From contig OZ242029.1 of NCBI GenBank assembly GCA_965205015.1, positions 672,001 through 736,000 of the forward strand: a DNA stretch of 64,000 nt, given 5' to 3'. Origin of the DNA: Candidatus Poribacteria bacterium. GTDB lineage: Bacteria; Poribacteria; WGA-4E; WGA-3G. The notes below the pieces were generated by a model, which saw nothing but the letters and a program-made list of their open reading frames with translations, made no database searches and was not told the DNA's origin. Position numbers and translations under genes: made by a program. Every line of letters begins with the position of its first letter. Positions within the stretch are counted from its first letter, which is position 1. Of this stretch, positions 49,275 to 55,340 are shown piece by piece.

Positions 49275-50475
49275 TTTTTTCTCTCCCCGATAATTGCTCT
49301 GTTTCTAAGAGCGCGTCCTGAATTTCAGTGATAACATCTTGATCCGTTTCAACAGTTAATCGCGTTTGTAACGCCCGTTTGGCGGTTTCGTCCCCGATTT
49401 TTCCCAATGCCCAAGCGGCATGCCCCCGAACTAAAGGTTCGTGATCCGCCAATGCGCCTTCAAGTGCCGGAACAGCACGCCGCGTTCCCCAGTTCCCAAT
49501 GGCAACAAGGACATTCCGCAAGAATCCTCGACGTTTCGCACGTTTGATCGGACTCCCCTTGAAACGTCGGCTAAATTCCTGTTGCGTCATACCAACAAGT
49601 GAGAGTAACTTGGGCGCGAGGTTTCCATGGCGCGGCTGAAACGCCGGTTCGGTTGTCGGCACCGCTTTACTGTTCCACGGACAGACCTCTTGGCAGATGT
49701 CACAGCCAAAAATCAAGTTCCCGACCTTAGGACGAAGTGCCTTCGGTATGCTCCCCTTGAGTTCGATTGTCAGATAAGAGATACAGAGCCGGGAATCAAG
49801 TAGGTTCGGTTCAACAATTGCGTCCGTTGGGCACGCTTCAATACAGCGCGTGCAAGTGCCACAACTCCCACGTAGATCCGGCGTATCGTCTTCCAAAGCA
49901 ACATCGATAAGGACTTCCGCGAGAAAATACCAAGAACCCGACCGCCAATGAATCAAGTTCGTATTTTTACCGATCCATCCGATGCCTGCTCTCTGTGCGT
50001 ACTCCCTTTCAATAATAGGCGCCGTATCCACACATACGCGGGTTCGTAATTCGTTTTCAGCCGTCTGTTTAATAAAAGTGACAAGTTCTAAAAGGCGTTC
50101 ACGAATAAGTTCGTGATAATCATCTCCCCACGCATAGCGGGAGACCTGTCCCCGTCCCGGATCCTGTGTGAGTGCCTCCGGTGGATCGAGTGTATAATAG
50201 TTCATCGCGAGGCTAATCACAGATTTCGCCTCCGCCAGCAGTCGACGGACATCTGTCTTAAGCGGGAGATGCTTTTCAAGATAACGCATTTCTCCGGCGT
50301 ACCCGCTTTCTATCCACTGCCGATACCGTGCAACCGTTTCGCTACGCGCTGCGGGTGTGATCCCAACGAGTTCAAATCCAAGTTCGTTTGCGCGCGCATG
50401 AATTTGCTTTTTAATTATACCTTGCGGATTTTTAATTTTTCCTTGCGGATCGGTGAGGTGCGTTTGAATTTTCAA
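49267..50475 (-). CDS. queG: tRNA epoxyqueuosine reductase (start uncertain)
   Basis: SRYAWG.DYH, VDTAP, GWIGKN, CGTCTRCIEACPT, GCDICQEVCPWN, HEAT tail. Confidence 0.96.
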   Translation of the reverse strand: MKIQTHLTDPQGKIKNPQGIIKKQIHARANELGFELVGITPAARSETVARYRQWIESGYAGEMRYLEKHLPLKTDVRRLLAEAKSVISLAMNYYTLDPPEALTQDPGRGQVSRYAWGDDYHELIRERLLELVTFIKQTAENELRTRVCVDTAPIIEREYAQRAGIGWIGKNTNLIHWRSGSWYFLAEVLIDVALEDDTPDLRGSCGTCTRCIEACPTDAIVEPNLLDSRLCISYLTIELKGSIPKALRPKVGNLIFGCDICQEVCPWNSKAVPTTEPAFQPRHGNLAPKLLSLVGMTQQEFSRRFKGSPIKRAKRRGFLRNVLVAIGNWGTRRAVPALEGALADHEPLVRGHAAWALGKIGDETAKRALQTRLTVETDQDVITEIQDALLETEQLSGREKNA

Positions 50476-50518
50476 GTGCCTCCCCGTATATCCGCCCTCC
50501 GCTACGCTTCCGGGCTAC
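50408..50518 (-). repeat. Family L leader repeat with duplicated 3' end, overlapping queG start
   Basis: GTAGCCCG...GGGCGGATATACGG...ATCCGCAAGGAAAAATTAAAAATCCGCAAGGTATAATTAAAAA. Confidence 0.7.
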
Positions 50519-50545
50519 ACGTTTGGGTTAGTCAAGCACAATAAA

Positions 50546-51613
50546 TTAAAGATTCCCGCGTGGGTAGGATCCGAGAACACTGACGTTCCGGCACAATGCT
50601 TCAAGCTGCTCAAGTGCCACGATGACGGGTTCGTCGGTAATATGCCCCTCCATCTCCGTAAAAAAGATATATTCCCACGGTTTGGCTCGCGACGGCAAAG
50701 ATTCTAAATAACTCAGATTCAATTGCGCCTTCTCTAAAATACCCAAGGCTTGGTGTAACGCCCCAACTTTGTCCGGAATTGAGAAAAACAGTGAAGTCCG
50801 ATCGTGTCCGCTTGGATCTGGAACATGCTTTCCGATCACAAAGAAGCGAGTTGTGTTCTCAGGGTCATCCATAATGGAATTTGCGATGATTGGCACCTGA
50901 TAAATTTCGCTGGCAAGTTCACTTGCAATCGCAGCTGCTGACGGCTCTTGTGCGGCGCGTTGCGCTGCCTCAGACGTACTAATCACCTCAATCTGCTCAG
51001 CCCCACTGAGATGTTGCTTTAGCCATGCCTTACACTGCGCGAAAGGTTGCGGATGCGAGTAGACACACCGAATTTCTGCCAGCGGTGACCTTGATAAAAG
51101 GTGCTGCTTTATGGGCTGGAATGTCTCTGCACAAATCCACAACGGCGTCCGTTGGAAGCGTTCCAAAACATCACGAACGGTGCCCTGTGCCGAATTTTCA
51201 ATAGCGACTACCCCGTAGTCCGCTCTACCGGATTCAACTTCAGTAAAAATGTCAATCTGTGGGCGGATGGGAATAAATTCAGTTGATGTACCGAAATGAG
51301 AGAGAGCCGCCAAGTGCCCGAAACTCCCAATCGGACCGAGGAACGCCACCCGCTCCAGATCCTGCAAGGAACGGGATGCGGATAAAATCTCGGTCCAGAT
51401 CGTTTCAAGTGCAGCTTCAGGAAACTTGCCGCGATTTTGTGCCTTCAAACGTTCAATAATCTGCTTCTGCCGATGCGGAACATAGACCTCTGCAATGCCT
51501 GTTTCTGCTTTCATGGCACCGACCTGCGTGGAAATCTCAGCCCGCCTCTGTAGCAGTTCTAAAATTTGGTCATCAATCTCGTTAATCTGGTTCCGGTACT
51601 TTGTTAAATTCAT
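50546..51613 (-). CDS. pheA: Chorismate mutase / prephenate dehydratase
   Basis: R.QI.EID CM domain; IENS..G.V, SHPQ..AQC, N.TRF, ACT domain ESLPS. Confidence 0.96.
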   Translation of the reverse strand: MNLTKYRNQINEIDDQILELLQRRAEISTQVGAMKAETGIAEVYVPHRQKQIIERLKAQNRGKFPEAALETIWTEILSASRSLQDLERVAFLGPIGSFGHLAALSHFGTSTEFIPIRPQIDIFTEVESGRADYGVVAIENSAQGTVRDVLERFQRTPLWICAETFQPIKQHLLSRSPLAEIRCVYSHPQPFAQCKAWLKQHLSGAEQIEVISTSEAAQRAAQEPSAAAIASELASEIYQVPIIANSIMDDPENTTRFFVIGKHVPDPSGHDRTSLFFSIPDKVGALHQALGILEKAQLNLSYLESLPSRAKPWEYIFFTEMEGHITDEPVIVALEQLEALCRNVSVLGSYPRGNL

Positions 51614-51623
51614 TTTTAATTTC

Positions 51624-51698
51624 CTATAGACATGTCACCTCTACGGGGTTCAAGAGGGAATTCCTTTTAAAAACCCGGTAGGGACGACACGCCTATAG
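51624..51698. repeat. Inverted REP-like pair (CTATAGA..CTACGGGG family)
   Basis: CTATAGACATGTCACCTCTACGGGGTT...AACCCGGTAGGGACGACACGCCTATAG; half copies near 10683 and 31423. Confidence 0.6.
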
Positions 51699-51708
51699 AT
51701 TTCTATCG

Positions 51709-51954
51709 TTAGGAATCCAATTTCTTCATAGCGTCAATCATTTCCTCGTCCGAGGGATTATTTTTCACCATCTCAGTGAACGCCTCAGCACTTATCTCGT
51801 GTTCCTCCAGGAACAGCTTATCCTGCGGTCACGGGTAAATATACTCACCGAGGATACCTTGCAGTTTTGCACTGGCTTTATCACTGATTCTGGCTAACCA
51901 TGGGATATCCCCAATAATCATGTCTCGGTGCCGTGGTTTCCAATCGAGAGCCAT
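51709..51954 (-). CDS. DUF5069-like small protein with in-frame TGA (putative selenoprotein)
   Basis: SD AAGGAGGTG; MALDWKPRHRDMIIGDIPWLARISDKASAKLQGILGEYIYP-TGA-PQDKLFLEEHEISAEAFTEMVKNNPSDEEMIDAMKKLDS*. Confidence 0.8.
51800..51815 (-). promoter_or_regulatory. Candidate bacterial SECIS hairpin
   Basis: UGUUCC-UGGA-GGAACA; loop begins 20 nt after the UGA, G at loop position 2. Confidence 0.6.
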
Positions 51955-52071
51955 CTGTTTCACCTCCTTTTTAGTTATTAGCCGTCGGTTCTCGGCAGTC
52001 GGCTTTCAGCAAAGCGGTTTTCCGATGAGGTTACACCCTCTTACGAATGGCTGACCGCCGACGGCTGATGG

Positions 52072-55000
52072 CTATTGAGCAAGCTGACGTAAAGTTTCCT
52101 CCAAAAGCCGCTGATACCGTCCATATTCTGTCCAATCCCCAATGCGTAGCGCATCTTGTCCCTCATTGAAATAACGGTTCGCTTGTTCAATGAGTCCTTG
52201 TTGGGAATCGGGGTTGGAAACCCCTCCTACAAGCCCGATATCAGCCGCGCCACTGTCATCAGTTGTCGTTGTGGCAGTGGTAGTCTGGAACCGTGTTCCC
52301 TGTCCAAACATCTTGACGAGTGCTTCCTCAAGACTTTCACCCCACACGACTTCGTTCCCATATCCGATGACGACCCGTCGTAATTCGGGAATAGCGGTTT
52401 TTTCATCTTCGGATTGTATATAGATAGGCTCCACATAAAGCAGAGAGTTGTTCATCGGGAGAATCAACAGATTCCCGCGTAAGACGCGAGACCCTTGCGT
52501 ATTCCAGAGGCTAATCTGCTGTGAAATCTCCGGTTCTTGGCTAATAAAGTTCTCCACCTGCATGGGTCCAGCGACCTGCTTCCCTTTCGGGAACCGGTAA
52601 ACAAGGAGCTGCCCATATTGAGGCAAGTCGCATCGGGCGGCGAGCCATGCAGTCAGATTCGGTTTGTTGAGCGGTGTGAACGGCAACATTAACATGAATT
52701 CCGATTGCTCCTGCCCCGGTAATCTGATAACGACATAATAGGGTTCAACGGGTTGCCCATTTACCCTGGAACTTTGAGGAACCTGCTGCGGTGCGAAGGG
52801 ACTCCTCGGTTGCGGAGGCGCGGCAGCCTGTCGCGTTTGGGCATCTGTATTGTCATAAAGCTCTCTGCCGATCTCCCATTTATCCTCGCCTGCGTAGAAG
52901 GTTACAGGGTCTTTCATGTGGTAATCCTGATAAACGCGGGCTTGGATAAGGAACATGGAGGTGGGATATCGGATATGCGTCTTGAGATCCGCCGGCATTT
53001 CCTCAAACGATTTGAAAAGGTCTGGGAAAATCCGTCGATAACATTCCGAGATTGGGTCCTGTTCCCGTTCCATAATGTAAAAATCGGCAGTGCCATCGTA
53101 AGCATCAACGACGACTTTAACAGCATTTCGGATGTAGTTCCCCCACGGTTCACTGTCTTGCTGGGCGTCAGCAATCTGTCGACTTCTCTCACTGACGAAT
53201 TCTCGCATTGAAACGGAATAAGGATATCGGTGTGTGATCGTATAGGCATCAACCATCCACACCAATCTACCGTTATGGAGAATGATGTAAGGATCTCCAT
53301 CGTACCGTAAGAAGGGTGCGATTTTTTGGATCCGCTTTTTGATGTTTCTCTCGTAGAGGATTCGGCTTGTGGGTGAAATTTCACCGGGTAGCACGAAGTT
53401 AATTTCGTTATCGAACTTAAGCATATATACCATTTTACGCCAGAAAGAGTTCAGTTGTACGCCGCCCTTTCCTTGATAGGCATATTCGGCGTATTGTTGC
53501 CCTTCCTGGGGATAGTCAAATTCAAGTCCTTGGCTGCGTTCCGGATGAACGATAACATAACGATCTGTGCGTTCACCATAATAGATACGGGGTCCCGGTG
53601 TCTCGCTGAACCGATGTTGCCACTGCTCGTCATAGTCAATGGGTGGCAATCCCTGAATGTACATGTTAGGTTTGCCATTATCAATTTCATTAACCGGACT
53701 CACAACCGCGCCGTAGCCGTGCGTGTAGGTATAGGTCTGCTTGTACCAGTCATTCCTAATTTCAATAGGGAGCTCGTTGATATTGAGTTCCCGCCCAGAG
53801 AGCATGACCTGCCGAATCTCACCATCAACGACATAGCGATCAATATCAACATCGTTGAAATCATATTGTGTCCGCAATTCCTGAAGTTGTCGGAAAGTTC
53901 TGCGCAAGGGTCGCCAATCCCAGAGACGGATGCTATTGAAAACAGAAGCGTTTTCGGGACTTCTTATGTCATCGTAACTGAGTTGTTCCGTCAACGGGTA
54001 TTCTTCCTCTGTCACAGTGTTCTCAGCCAAACCATAAGCTTGGAGCGTGGCTTTGATGTTGTAGTTGATATAGTCCGCCTCTAACACCTGTTTTCTGGGT
54101 TCAACCTGCCATCTCTGTATCGCGACCGGATAGACTTGTCCAAGGAATCCGGCAATCAGAAAAACAGCAAACCCTCCAAAAGCAAGGGTGTTGCGTTTTA
54201 AGAAGATACTAATGATGAAGATGATGGCACACAGAATCGTCAGTCCAACTAAGAAATACAAAATGGGGAGTCGTGCCTTCATTGCGGCGTATCCACCACC
54301 ACCGCGGACAACATCGTTTGTCGTGTAGAGCAGATCAAACATAGCAAAGCGGTAGTTCCACGCTCGGAAGAGGAGTGTCAAACCGACAAGTGTGAACAAA
54401 TGCGCTTTCACATTGAAAGGTGGACGGAACCGAAACTGGCTGGTATCTCCGGTGATGAGGCCGTGAAAAAAGTAAATGACGATCGCAAATATCGTCACTA
54501 ACATAAAGAGACCGAAAAGCGTTCCACAAACATAACGTTCCGCAGGCATCCTGAAAACGTAATAGGCGACATCCTTATCAAAGATAGGATCGCGCGCAGG
54601 AGACGTGAAGACGGCTTTCTGCCCGGGTTCAATTTGAACAGGCGTATTCAAACGGATGGCATCATTTAAAATAGCTTCAACCCGTGCATCTTGATTCGTT
54701 CCGTTTATTTGTAAACTGATCTGATCCCCGACTCTGATGTTTTTCGCCTGGAGTTCGAGTTGCGAGACAGGAATCTCGGCAGAATTGAGGCTCTCTTCCA
54801 CAACAATAGGCGTAGCCGCACGGAAAGTAAGGTTTTCAGCATTGGCATAGCGCAGATAGATCTCCCACCGGTCGCTGGCTGCATAACCCATCATGACACT
54901 AAAAAGAACCGCAAGCAGTGTGAGTGCGCCGTAAATCAGTTTTCGCGTATCACCGGGGTTTTCTGCGGCATTGCCCATGAAATCCGCGCCCCCCATAAAA

Positions 55001-55251
55001 GCGGGACTCAGATGTGCGGGTGTGAATCGATAGATTAAGGCAATGTTCGTGAGAAGGATCGCCAAATAGCAAACGCCAACAATTGCACCGACCCAGATTT
55101 TTGTTGTGAGAATTTTAGTGTAAACGCTGAGATAGTCCACTACCTGAAACCATAGGATGTCGGGATAAAGGTTAACCCAGATGGCACCTAATCCTCCAAC
55201 AACGGCGAGAACGGCGACAGTGATAATAAAGCGTTTGGTTCGTGAATCCAT
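52072..55251 (-). CDS. UPF0182 family membrane protein
   Basis: DPIF.KD+.YY+F, IRLWD.RPL, D+DIDRY, YTHGYG, NYIRN.VK.VVDAYDG, GNLL++P. Confidence 0.95.
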   Translation of the reverse strand: MDSRTKRFIITVAVLAVVGGLGAIWVNLYPDILWFQVVDYLSVYTKILTTKIWVGAIVGVCYLAILLTNIALIYRFTPAHLSPAFMGGADFMGNAAENPGDTRKLIYGALTLLAVLFSVMMGYAASDRWEIYLRYANAENLTFRAATPIVVEESLNSAEIPVSQLELQAKNIRVGDQISLQINGTNQDARVEAILNDAIRLNTPVQIEPGQKAVFTSPARDPIFDKDVAYYVFRMPAERYVCGTLFGLFMLVTIFAIVIYFFHGLITGDTSQFRFRPPFNVKAHLFTLVGLTLLFRAWNYRFAMFDLLYTTNDVVRGGGGYAAMKARLPILYFLVGLTILCAIIFIISIFLKRNTLAFGGFAVFLIAGFLGQVYPVAIQRWQVEPRKQVLEADYINYNIKATLQAYGLAENTVTEEEYPLTEQLSYDDIRSPENASVFNSIRLWDWRPLRRTFRQLQELRTQYDFNDVDIDRYVVDGEIRQVMLSGRELNINELPIEIRNDWYKQTYTYTHGYGAVVSPVNEIDNGKPNMYIQGLPPIDYDEQWQHRFSETPGPRIYYGERTDRYVIVHPERSQGLEFDYPQEGQQYAEYAYQGKGGVQLNSFWRKMVYMLKFDNEINFVLPGEISPTSRILYERNIKKRIQKIAPFLRYDGDPYIILHNGRLVWMVDAYTITHRYPYSVSMREFVSERSRQIADAQQDSEPWGNYIRNAVKVVVDAYDGTADFYIMEREQDPISECYRRIFPDLFKSFEEMPADLKTHIRYPTSMFLIQARVYQDYHMKDPVTFYAGEDKWEIGRELYDNTDAQTRQAAAPPQPRSPFAPQQVPQSSRVNGQPVEPYYVVIRLPGQEQSEFMLMLPFTPLNKPNLTAWLAARCDLPQYGQLLVYRFPKGKQVAGPMQVENFISQEPEISQQISLWNTQGSRVLRGNLLILPMNNSLLYVEPIYIQSEDEKTAIPELRRVVIGYGNEVVWGESLEEALVKMFGQGTRFQTTTATTTTDDSGAADIGLVGGVSNPDSQQGLIEQANRYFNEGQDALRIGDWTEYGRYQRLLEETLRQLAQ

Positions 55252-55340
55252 TTTTTAGTTATACCTTGCGGTTCGATGAGGTGGGTTGAATGACCAACGC
55301 GCCTCTCCGTAGATCCGCCCTCCATTACATTACGGGCTGC
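55252..55340 (-). repeat. Family L leader repeat
   Basis: GCAGCCCGTAATGTAATGGAGGGCGGATCTACGG...ACCGCAAGGTATAACTAAAAA-ATG. Confidence 0.7.

Follow-up and report, generated by a model that had tools for sequence, protein, structure and literature searches.

The subject of this study is a small gene in a stretch of 64,000 nucleotides of a Candidatus Poribacteria genome (NCBI GenBank assembly GCA_965205015.1, contig OZ242029.1, positions 672,001 to 736,000 of the forward strand), which is referred to as the window throughout and numbered from its first letter. The minus-strand frame from position 51954 to 51709 comprises 81 codons with a single in-frame TGA at codon 42 according to its translation, and comparative sequence evidence makes it highly probable that this frame is a real gene, expressed as one piece, for an 81-residue poribacterial selenoprotein that represents a short form of the family DUF5069. 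We are likewise confident that the product is a genuine selenoprotein, whose TGA would be decoded as selenocysteine (Sec) via a selenocysteine insertion sequence (SECIS). A preliminary description of the locus had listed a strong Shine-Dalgarno sequence, 41 codons, a TGA at 51831-29, 39 further codons, a TAA and a hairpin, and this layout matches the sequence exactly. The features are as follows, with the ratio of nonsynonymous to synonymous substitution rates abbreviated as dN/dS and the minimum free energy as MFE.

51969-51961, minus strand: Shine-Dalgarno-like sequence AAGGAGGTG, 6 nt 5' of the ATG, read from the sequence
51954-51952, minus strand: start codon ATG, from the sequence
51832..51954, minus strand: codons 1-41 (MALDWKPRHRD...GEYIYP) of the putative DUF5069 selenoprotein gene, based on translation, the PF16798 match and a dN/dS of 0.037 over 81 sequences
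51829..51831, minus strand: in-frame TGA, codon 42, predicted to be read as Sec, conserved in relatives and aligned to the Cys of the structure 3OMD
51712..51828, minus strand: codons 43-81 (PQDKLFLEEH...KKLDS), 39 sense codons translated only with TGA decoding, based on Pfam, dN/dS and an AlphaFold2 model of residues 3-81
51800..51815, minus strand: putative SECIS core hairpin UGUUCC-UGGA-GGAACA with its loop at 51809-51806, spanning codons 47-52 (L-F-L-E-E-H), based on synonymous constraint, RNAalifold and compensatory changes
51783..51828, minus strand: possible lower stem around the core hairpin (columns 4-12 with 41-49 past the UGA), unproven, from a single-sequence MFE only
51709..51711, minus strand: stop codon TAA, from the sequence

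The list of open reading frames (ORFs) made under translation table 11 contains just a 44-residue piece at this locus, which ends at GEYIYP. When the window was scanned for frames that are bridged by one TGA and lie outside longer ORFs, only 2 candidates remained out of 84, namely the DUF5069 gene and a trivial case beside queF.

Family membership and conservation of the TGA codon

The read-through product matches the Pfam family DUF5069 (PF16798) with 50.7 bits (gathering cut-off 27; E = 2.7e-13), and this match places residues 7-77 on positions 4-74 of the 133 profile positions and runs across the TGA. Membership in DUF5069 with a similarity that continues past the TGA had been claimed beforehand, and the score above the gathering cut-off of the Pfam profile upholds it. 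As judged from this alignment, the protein is a short DUF5069 form without the C-terminal half of the canonical domain; none of the NCBIfam models matches it at E ≤ 1. It shares the motif L-x-R-x-x-D-K-x-R-A ... G-E-Y-x-Y-x-C-P-x-D with the Cys-containing DUF5069 proteins, the Cys being replaced by the TGA. DUF5069 matches are present in 169 of the 175 Poribacteria genomes, usually four to five per genome, and this set includes open frames of ~430 residues with two or three tandem domains (e.g., G001:C1:835631-836029) as well as full-length forms of ~150 residues.

An AlphaFold2 model based on a 10-sequence alignment (pLDDT 81, pTM 0.69) predicts a beta-hairpin followed by four helices, with residue 42 located directly N-terminal to helix 43-51 and after the invariant G-E-Y-I-Y-P loop. 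Its sole clear structural relative is PDB entry 3OMD, which Foldseek found with a probability of 1.0 and a TMq of 0.79 and which VIA-align superimposed over residues 3-81 of the model (Z 11.2; root mean square deviation 2.0; 79 residues; 33% identity), the next match having a Z of 3.7. The DUF5069 profile matches 3OMD as well (E = 4e-14), and this protein reads GEYTYNCPLDQ with its Cys at the TGA column. According to the model, the fold is that of the N-terminal 80 residues of 3OMD. TetR-like helical matches past 3OMD, obtained with Foldseek and VIA-align (Z ≤ 3.7), were weak and were taken for common helix packing, and a protein atlas search with the natural Cys homologue P0009 gave no usable match.

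Among species-representative genomes, 498 related loci were found, and the conservation of the TGA was assessed in the best 80, all of which belong to metagenome-assembled genomes (MAGs) of Candidatus Poribacteria. The TGA at codon 42 is kept in 80/80 of these loci at protein identities of 79-96%, and the frame stays open on to codon 80-85. An orthologue at E ≤ 1e-12 was detected in 167 of the 175 species genomes of the phylum, nearly always as a single copy, and exactly one in-frame TGA is found in each of the 150 orthologues among the matches listed. In a scan of metagenomes for which a second lineage served as the seed, 58 loci were obtained, with TGA in 48, a Cys codon (TGY) in 8 and an undeterminable codon in 2. 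The gene can be addressed as a near-universal single-copy core gene of Poribacteria that also occurs in several other marine lineages. In the loci L094, L096, L097 and L099-L101, a second TGA about 45 codons past the Sec codon seems to be the true stop (...KSHP-x-G followed by TGA); one and the same codon would then act as Sec and as stop within a 90-codon gene.

If the TGA at codon 42 were a true stop, the locus would be a pseudogene, an assembly error or the gene of a 41-residue peptide, and the downstream frame would be untranslated. This is how public gene callers treat it in the entries P0011-P0015, which end at GEYIYP and often carry a spurious N-terminal extension, and TGA is indeed a normal stop codon in the window. 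We nevertheless consider this explanation hardly credible, given the retention of the TGA in the Poribacteria loci and in the listed orthologues, the continuity of one Pfam domain and one 3OMD-like fold over the site, and the selection acting behind it. Pairwise Nei-Gojobori estimates for 81 sequences yielded a dN/dS of 0.037 for codons 2-41 versus 0.079 for codons 43-80, or 0.064 downstream without the hairpin codons, with a synonymous divergence of ~0.6 in both halves of the gene; synonymous sites in the downstream part are near saturation (proportion of synonymous differences [pS], 0.58). The codons after the TGA are, on this substitution pattern, under purifying selection, and together with the Pfam match to residue 77 the dN/dS past the TGA confirms the conserved downstream half on which the preliminary description had made its proposal depend. 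In addition, no conserved start codon is present 3' of the TGA, since codon 47 is ATG, CTG, TTG, TCG, AAG, AGG, AGC or CGC depending on the lineage.

The exchange of Sec and Cys at column 42 provides another line of evidence. A profile search in 1.84 billion representatives resulted in 400 matches at E ≤ 1e-3, and the column of the TGA was counted in 184 aligned DUF5069 domain stretches from 162 proteins. It contains Cys in 106 stretches (including the placeholder C of the query), Ser in 30, Trp (W) in 8, a gap in 18 and other residues in 22, with Gly in 4; W presumably reflects a TGA called under another code, and the gaps are mostly calls that end at position 41. The claim that the TGA sits on the conserved Cys of the family is substantiated by these counts and by the Cys of 3OMD. 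In triple-repeat DUF5069 proteins, the column is mostly occupied by Ser or Gly. None of the public calls of the gene (P0002-P0016) is named, and farther homologues show Cys. A maximum-likelihood tree was calculated for 58 short forms (51 Sec and 7 Cys; identical rows dropped and every fifth distinct Poribacteria row kept); it needs four Sec/Cys switches, at least three of which are forced by well-supported branches. One small clade (support 97/83) unites the Cys form L102 with the Sec forms L107 and L109 and looks like a case in which the SECIS was drifting and Sec was replaced by Cys once.

The putative SECIS hairpin and the selenocysteine machinery

The core of the hairpin, GUUCC-UGGA-GGAAC, has five core pairs plus one or two more, a 4-nt loop whose positions 2 and 3 are both G, and a UGA-to-loop spacing of 19 nt. 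The constraints for bacterial SECIS (bSECIS) elements printed in the legend of Fig. 2 in PMC13188914 comprise an apical loop of 3-9 nt, an upper stem of 4-16 bp, a G in the first two loop positions, a UGA-to-loop distance of 16-37 nt and an MFE of ≤ -7.5 kcal/mol. The hairpin lies within these printed values, the 54 nt counted from the UGA reaching -12.0 kcal/mol (hairpin included), and its UGGA loop at 19 nt bears out the SECIS-like features noted beforehand, i.e., a small loop with an early G at a spacing of 16-37 nt. A lower stem appears only in the MFE structure of these 54 nt; its register differs in other lineages and no covariation could be shown for it, and the near-invariance of GCT at codon 56 (80/81) may be due to such a stem.

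Within the 81 sequences, the synonymous entropy of codons 48-51 (TTC CTG GAG GAA) drops to 0, 0.10, 0 and 0.10, compared with 0.93-1.0 in codons 43-46 and 52, and the pS of 0.021 in codons 48-51 versus 0.58-0.66 elsewhere corresponds to a ~30-fold suppression. The hairpin GTTCCTGGAGGAAC is present in 78 of the 80 Poribacteria loci, and the other two have one change that preserves a G-U pair, so that TGA and hairpin are retained together in homologues, as the preliminary description had hoped to see. The five core pairs are intact in 80/80 Poribacteria Sec forms and in 44/46 metagenomic Sec forms versus 0/8 Cys forms. Among the 46 metagenomic Sec forms with enough sequence, 31 have the Poribacteria hairpin, 12 the compensatory variant CTTCCTGGAGGAAG (CUUCC...GGAAG) and one a U-G wobble, and two are deviant. 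In 112 Sec-form segments, 91.1% of the cells pair versus 82.5% in shuffles; the covariation score of 0.175 versus 0.052 was reached by 0/500 shuffles, a count that is not a probability because relatedness is retained. Pair 18-31 is GC in 100 and CG in 9 segments, pair 17-32 is UA in 73, AU in 17 and GU in 13, and RNAalifold independently predicts the same 6-bp hairpin. Sec forms encode the peptide F-L-E-E in this place and Cys forms F-L-E-K, F-L-E-R or F-L-Q-D/E, a difference that fits with a sequence fixed by the RNA and not by the protein. As far as the alignments show, it is conservation and covariation, and not energy, that speak for the hairpin.

The proposed mechanism follows the known route of UGA recoding. 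SelB with its Sec-tRNA(Sec) would bind the SECIS hairpin inside the coding sequence, and the ribosome would insert Sec at the UGA of codon 42 instead of terminating. The hairpin would have to be kept for this purpose, and F-L-E-E at codons 48-51 would therefore be frozen in the Sec forms.

The required machinery was looked for in relatives. Five complete Poribacteria genomes (holding the loci L001, L003, L004, L008 and L009) all contain selA (~600 bits), selB (~347 bits), selD (~360 bits) and tRNA-Sec (78 bits) above the respective cut-offs, and the check for selA, selB, selC and selD that had been recommended thus turned out positive in 5/5 relatives. The tRNA-Sec gene adjoins selB in all five genomes (e.g., G001:C1:3673008-3675162). 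Poribacteria selD itself has one in-frame TGA at the canonical VKCAGUASK site (L085 and L086; selD loci of G003 and G001), and its Sec codon is followed by a CUC-CGGGU-GAG-type hairpin. In the phylum as a whole, selA is above the cut-off in 162 of 175 genomes and in 158 of the 167 with a TGA orthologue. Scans of the 64-kb window for tRNAs and Rfam families revealed no tRNA, no Rfam family and no sel gene, which is uninformative on the rest of the genome.

A TGA that is read as a standard amino acid, either in a reassigned code (Trp or Gly) or by near-cognate suppression, is suggested by the database entries P0002-P0008, which are full length and have a W at this position, presumably due to a table with TGA as Trp. 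We assign a very low probability to this possibility. TGA terminates 9 of the 38 ORFs of ≥ 250 amino acids in the window, and table 11 leaves long ORFs uninterrupted, among them the one of 1059 residues; the use of TGA as an ordinary stop in these 9/38 frames excludes a reassigned code. Moreover, the homologues have Cys and not Trp or Gly in the column, relatives possess the complete Sec machinery together with a Sec-containing selD, and a co-varying hairpin at SECIS distance is found only in TGA forms. Decoding as Sec, and with it the earlier proposal of a Sec-containing form of an uncharacterised family, is supported by the conserved TGA, the Sec/Cys pairing, the hairpin and the machinery in relatives.

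Several observations weigh against the decoding of the TGA as Sec or against its general importance. The Sec machinery is shown only in relatives, which have 80-91% DNA identity over the syntenic 12-kb region around the gene, and no selA was found in nine phylum genomes with the TGA gene, mostly fragmented assemblies of many contigs. Ser occupies the column in 30/184 stretches, mainly in triple-repeat paralogues, so that not every DUF5069 domain depends on residue 42. The Sec forms L107 and L109 are without the standard hairpin, although each can form another one a few bases away. The hairpin is short, with -6.5 kcal/mol alone, and the 71-nt region does not exceed shuffles in stability (z -0.82); the MFE structure of this region favours a competing CAGGA/UCCUG hairpin, a pairing that lacks conservation, as CAA takes the place of CAG in half of the relatives. 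In favour of the gene, the ORF is covered by RNA-library contigs from two studies, but contigs prove neither transcription nor a single transcript. A 1603-letter contig in X17, found identically in X18, spans 51708-51961 including the TGA with 16 differences and runs on into pheA, and we regard such contigs as weak evidence of expression. In the sponge metatranscriptome libraries X12 and X16, the summed contig word depth over 51712-52014 exceeds that over pheA and UPF0182 on either side by a factor of 10-50; this depth comes from contigs that sum many strains and is hence no measure of expression.

Possible roles of residue 42 and genomic neighbours

Selenocysteine is costly and is almost always located at a catalytic or ligand-binding position. 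Due to this cost and placement, the Sec/Cys pair points to residue 42 as a functional site, and Sec42 would be the functional nucleophile of DUF5069. The preliminary description had suggested a redox or metal-binding residue, which the results do not contradict. The 81-residue product has zero cysteines (local sequence YPUPQD), so that Sec42 would be the only reactive chalcogen of the protein. Most likely, it would react with an external thiol partner in selenol/selenenylsulfide redox chemistry, which is proposed because the protein has no resolving Cys. This redox role is the preferred reading, and we rate its chances as even. It has to be reconciled with the outcome of a test for thioredoxin-type oxidoreductases, in which the protein showed no CxxU/UxxC motif and no thioredoxin-fold chain was among the structural matches listed; both the absent motif and the different fold speak against a redox function.

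The same two properties, together with the lone Sec and the lack of Cys, would suit a real Sec whose role is that of a selenolate ligand to a metal, a metalloid or a cofactor, or of a selenium or sulfur carrier, and not of a redox catalyst. Fusion partners of DUF5069 domains are cupin, methyltransferase, DUF2249 and AI-2E transporter domains, and further dienelactone hydrolase and an amino-acid kinase fragment, without a shared theme among them. In PMC13188914, a binding capacity is predicted for ~20% of the selenoprotein families, and ~70% of this capacity concerns metals. No residues that could be partners in metal binding were identified, and the location of the gene directly after a fusion of glutaredoxin (Grx) and a thioredoxin reductase (TrxR)-like protein in 10 metagenomic loci leans to thiol redox chemistry; a role as ligand or carrier appears possible but rather unlikely.

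The gene directly upstream in these 10 loci encodes a 448-residue fusion of glutaredoxin and a pyridine-nucleotide-disulfide reductase on the same strand (L127:1018-2361, and in the same position in L111, L112, L117, L119, L128, L134, L135, L138 and L139). The fusion-bearing loci represent a sister lineage whose protein is ~67% identical to that of the window, and a dodecin-like gene and a methyltransferase gene are located 5' of the fusion. A Poribacteria protein whose gene is located elsewhere in the genome shares 78% identity with the reductase part. Neighbours vary, however, by lineage, and the Poribacteria TrxR homologue is more than 1 Mb away from the gene, and the Grx-TrxR link is therefore only a hint. 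A broader, speculative proposal is that the short DUF5069 proteins constitute a new non-thioredoxin class of single-selenol/single-thiol proteins, in which Sec42 serves in redox chemistry or chalcogen transfer with an external partner, the Grx/TrxR fusion being the candidate, and that the gene as part of the core genome helps to sustain the Sec trait.

In the window, the neighbours are UPF0182 upstream and pheA and queG downstream, and a 12-kb region around the gene is syntenic with five Poribacteria genomes (80-91% nucleotide identity). Downstream pheA is found in 20 loci, and an HDOD response regulator and SBP_bac_5 are the neighbours in another lineage; the largest neighbour cluster was discarded as an ORF shadow antisense to the DUF5069 gene itself. 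A scan of 51500-52200 revealed no promoter-like site and one terminator-like site, which is on the opposite strand inside the coding sequence and at chance level. Short intergenic stretches of ~70-120 nt between queG and pheA and upstream of UPF0182 (~50408-50529 and ~55249-55339), as well as ~51999-52076, have matches of 72-92% identity at dozens of other sites per genome in five Poribacteria genomes. This points to a dispersed intergenic repeat family similar to repetitive extragenic palindromes or miniature inverted-repeat transposable elements.

Comparison with known selenoproteins

New selenoprotein families are still reported regularly. A full-text literature search retrieved no paper that mentions DUF5069 or PF16798, and PF16798 is absent from the 119 families and subfamilies of the 2026 inventory (Table 1 in PMC13188914). 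The accessible parts of the articles on deep-Sep (PMC12013277) and BSepDB (PMC13326102) do not mention DUF5069 either. The preliminary description did not recognise a described selenoprotein family, and in agreement with it no prior description was found in the literature or in the 2026 inventory; the DUF5069 selenoprotein family is thus probably undescribed so far. A possible exception is the hypothetical protein GOS_A of the 2008 Global Ocean Sampling selenoproteome, for which the available text of PMC2398784 gives 2 Sec forms, 155 Cys homologues and no conserved domain. GOS_A is likewise a marine metagenomic selenoprotein candidate and absent from the 2026 table, and on comparison by description it may belong to DUF5069.

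The gene is a likely addition to the prokaryotic selenoproteome, and its family is missing from the 2026 inventory and from the NCBI annotation models. As a consequence, it is missed, truncated at GEYIYP or mistranslated with W in public MAGs. For DUF5069, whose function is uncharacterised and whose structure 3OMD is unannotated, residue 42 would represent the first functional handle. Along with selD, it is a selenium-dependent gene that is conserved in a phylum of abundant, uncultured sponge symbionts (167/175 species genomes). Its SECIS signature is unusually clean, and F-L-E-E provides a clean natural example of an RNA element that constrains a protein sequence.

The proposed mode of decoding resembles the SelB-dependent UGA recoding of the bSECIS model as far as it is laid out in PMC13188914, with an in-frame hairpin inside the coding sequence just past the UGA, GG in the loop, a spacing of 19 nt and an upper stem of 5-7 bp. 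The core is, however, unusually short and almost invariant across lineages that differ at up to half of their residues, and neither a bulged U nor an extended lower helix could be shown. With the Cys-containing DUF5069 proteins, including 3OMD from Leptospirillum rubarum, which has 145 residues and is itself uncharacterised, the selenoprotein shares the profile family, the fold and the motif, but Sec replaces Cys and only positions 4-74 of the 133 profile positions are covered. Predicted Sec forms of other uncharacterised families, i.e., DUF3179, DUF166, DUF1573, DUF1858 and DUF523, are listed in Table 1 of PMC13188914, and the short DUF5069 proteins are comparable to them with respect to the Sec/Cys pair at a conserved column, the TGA homologues in several Sec users and the SECIS-like hairpin. 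Most families of this table carry motifs of the UxxC/CxxU type, whereas the short DUF5069 form of Poribacteria has a lone Sec and no Cys.

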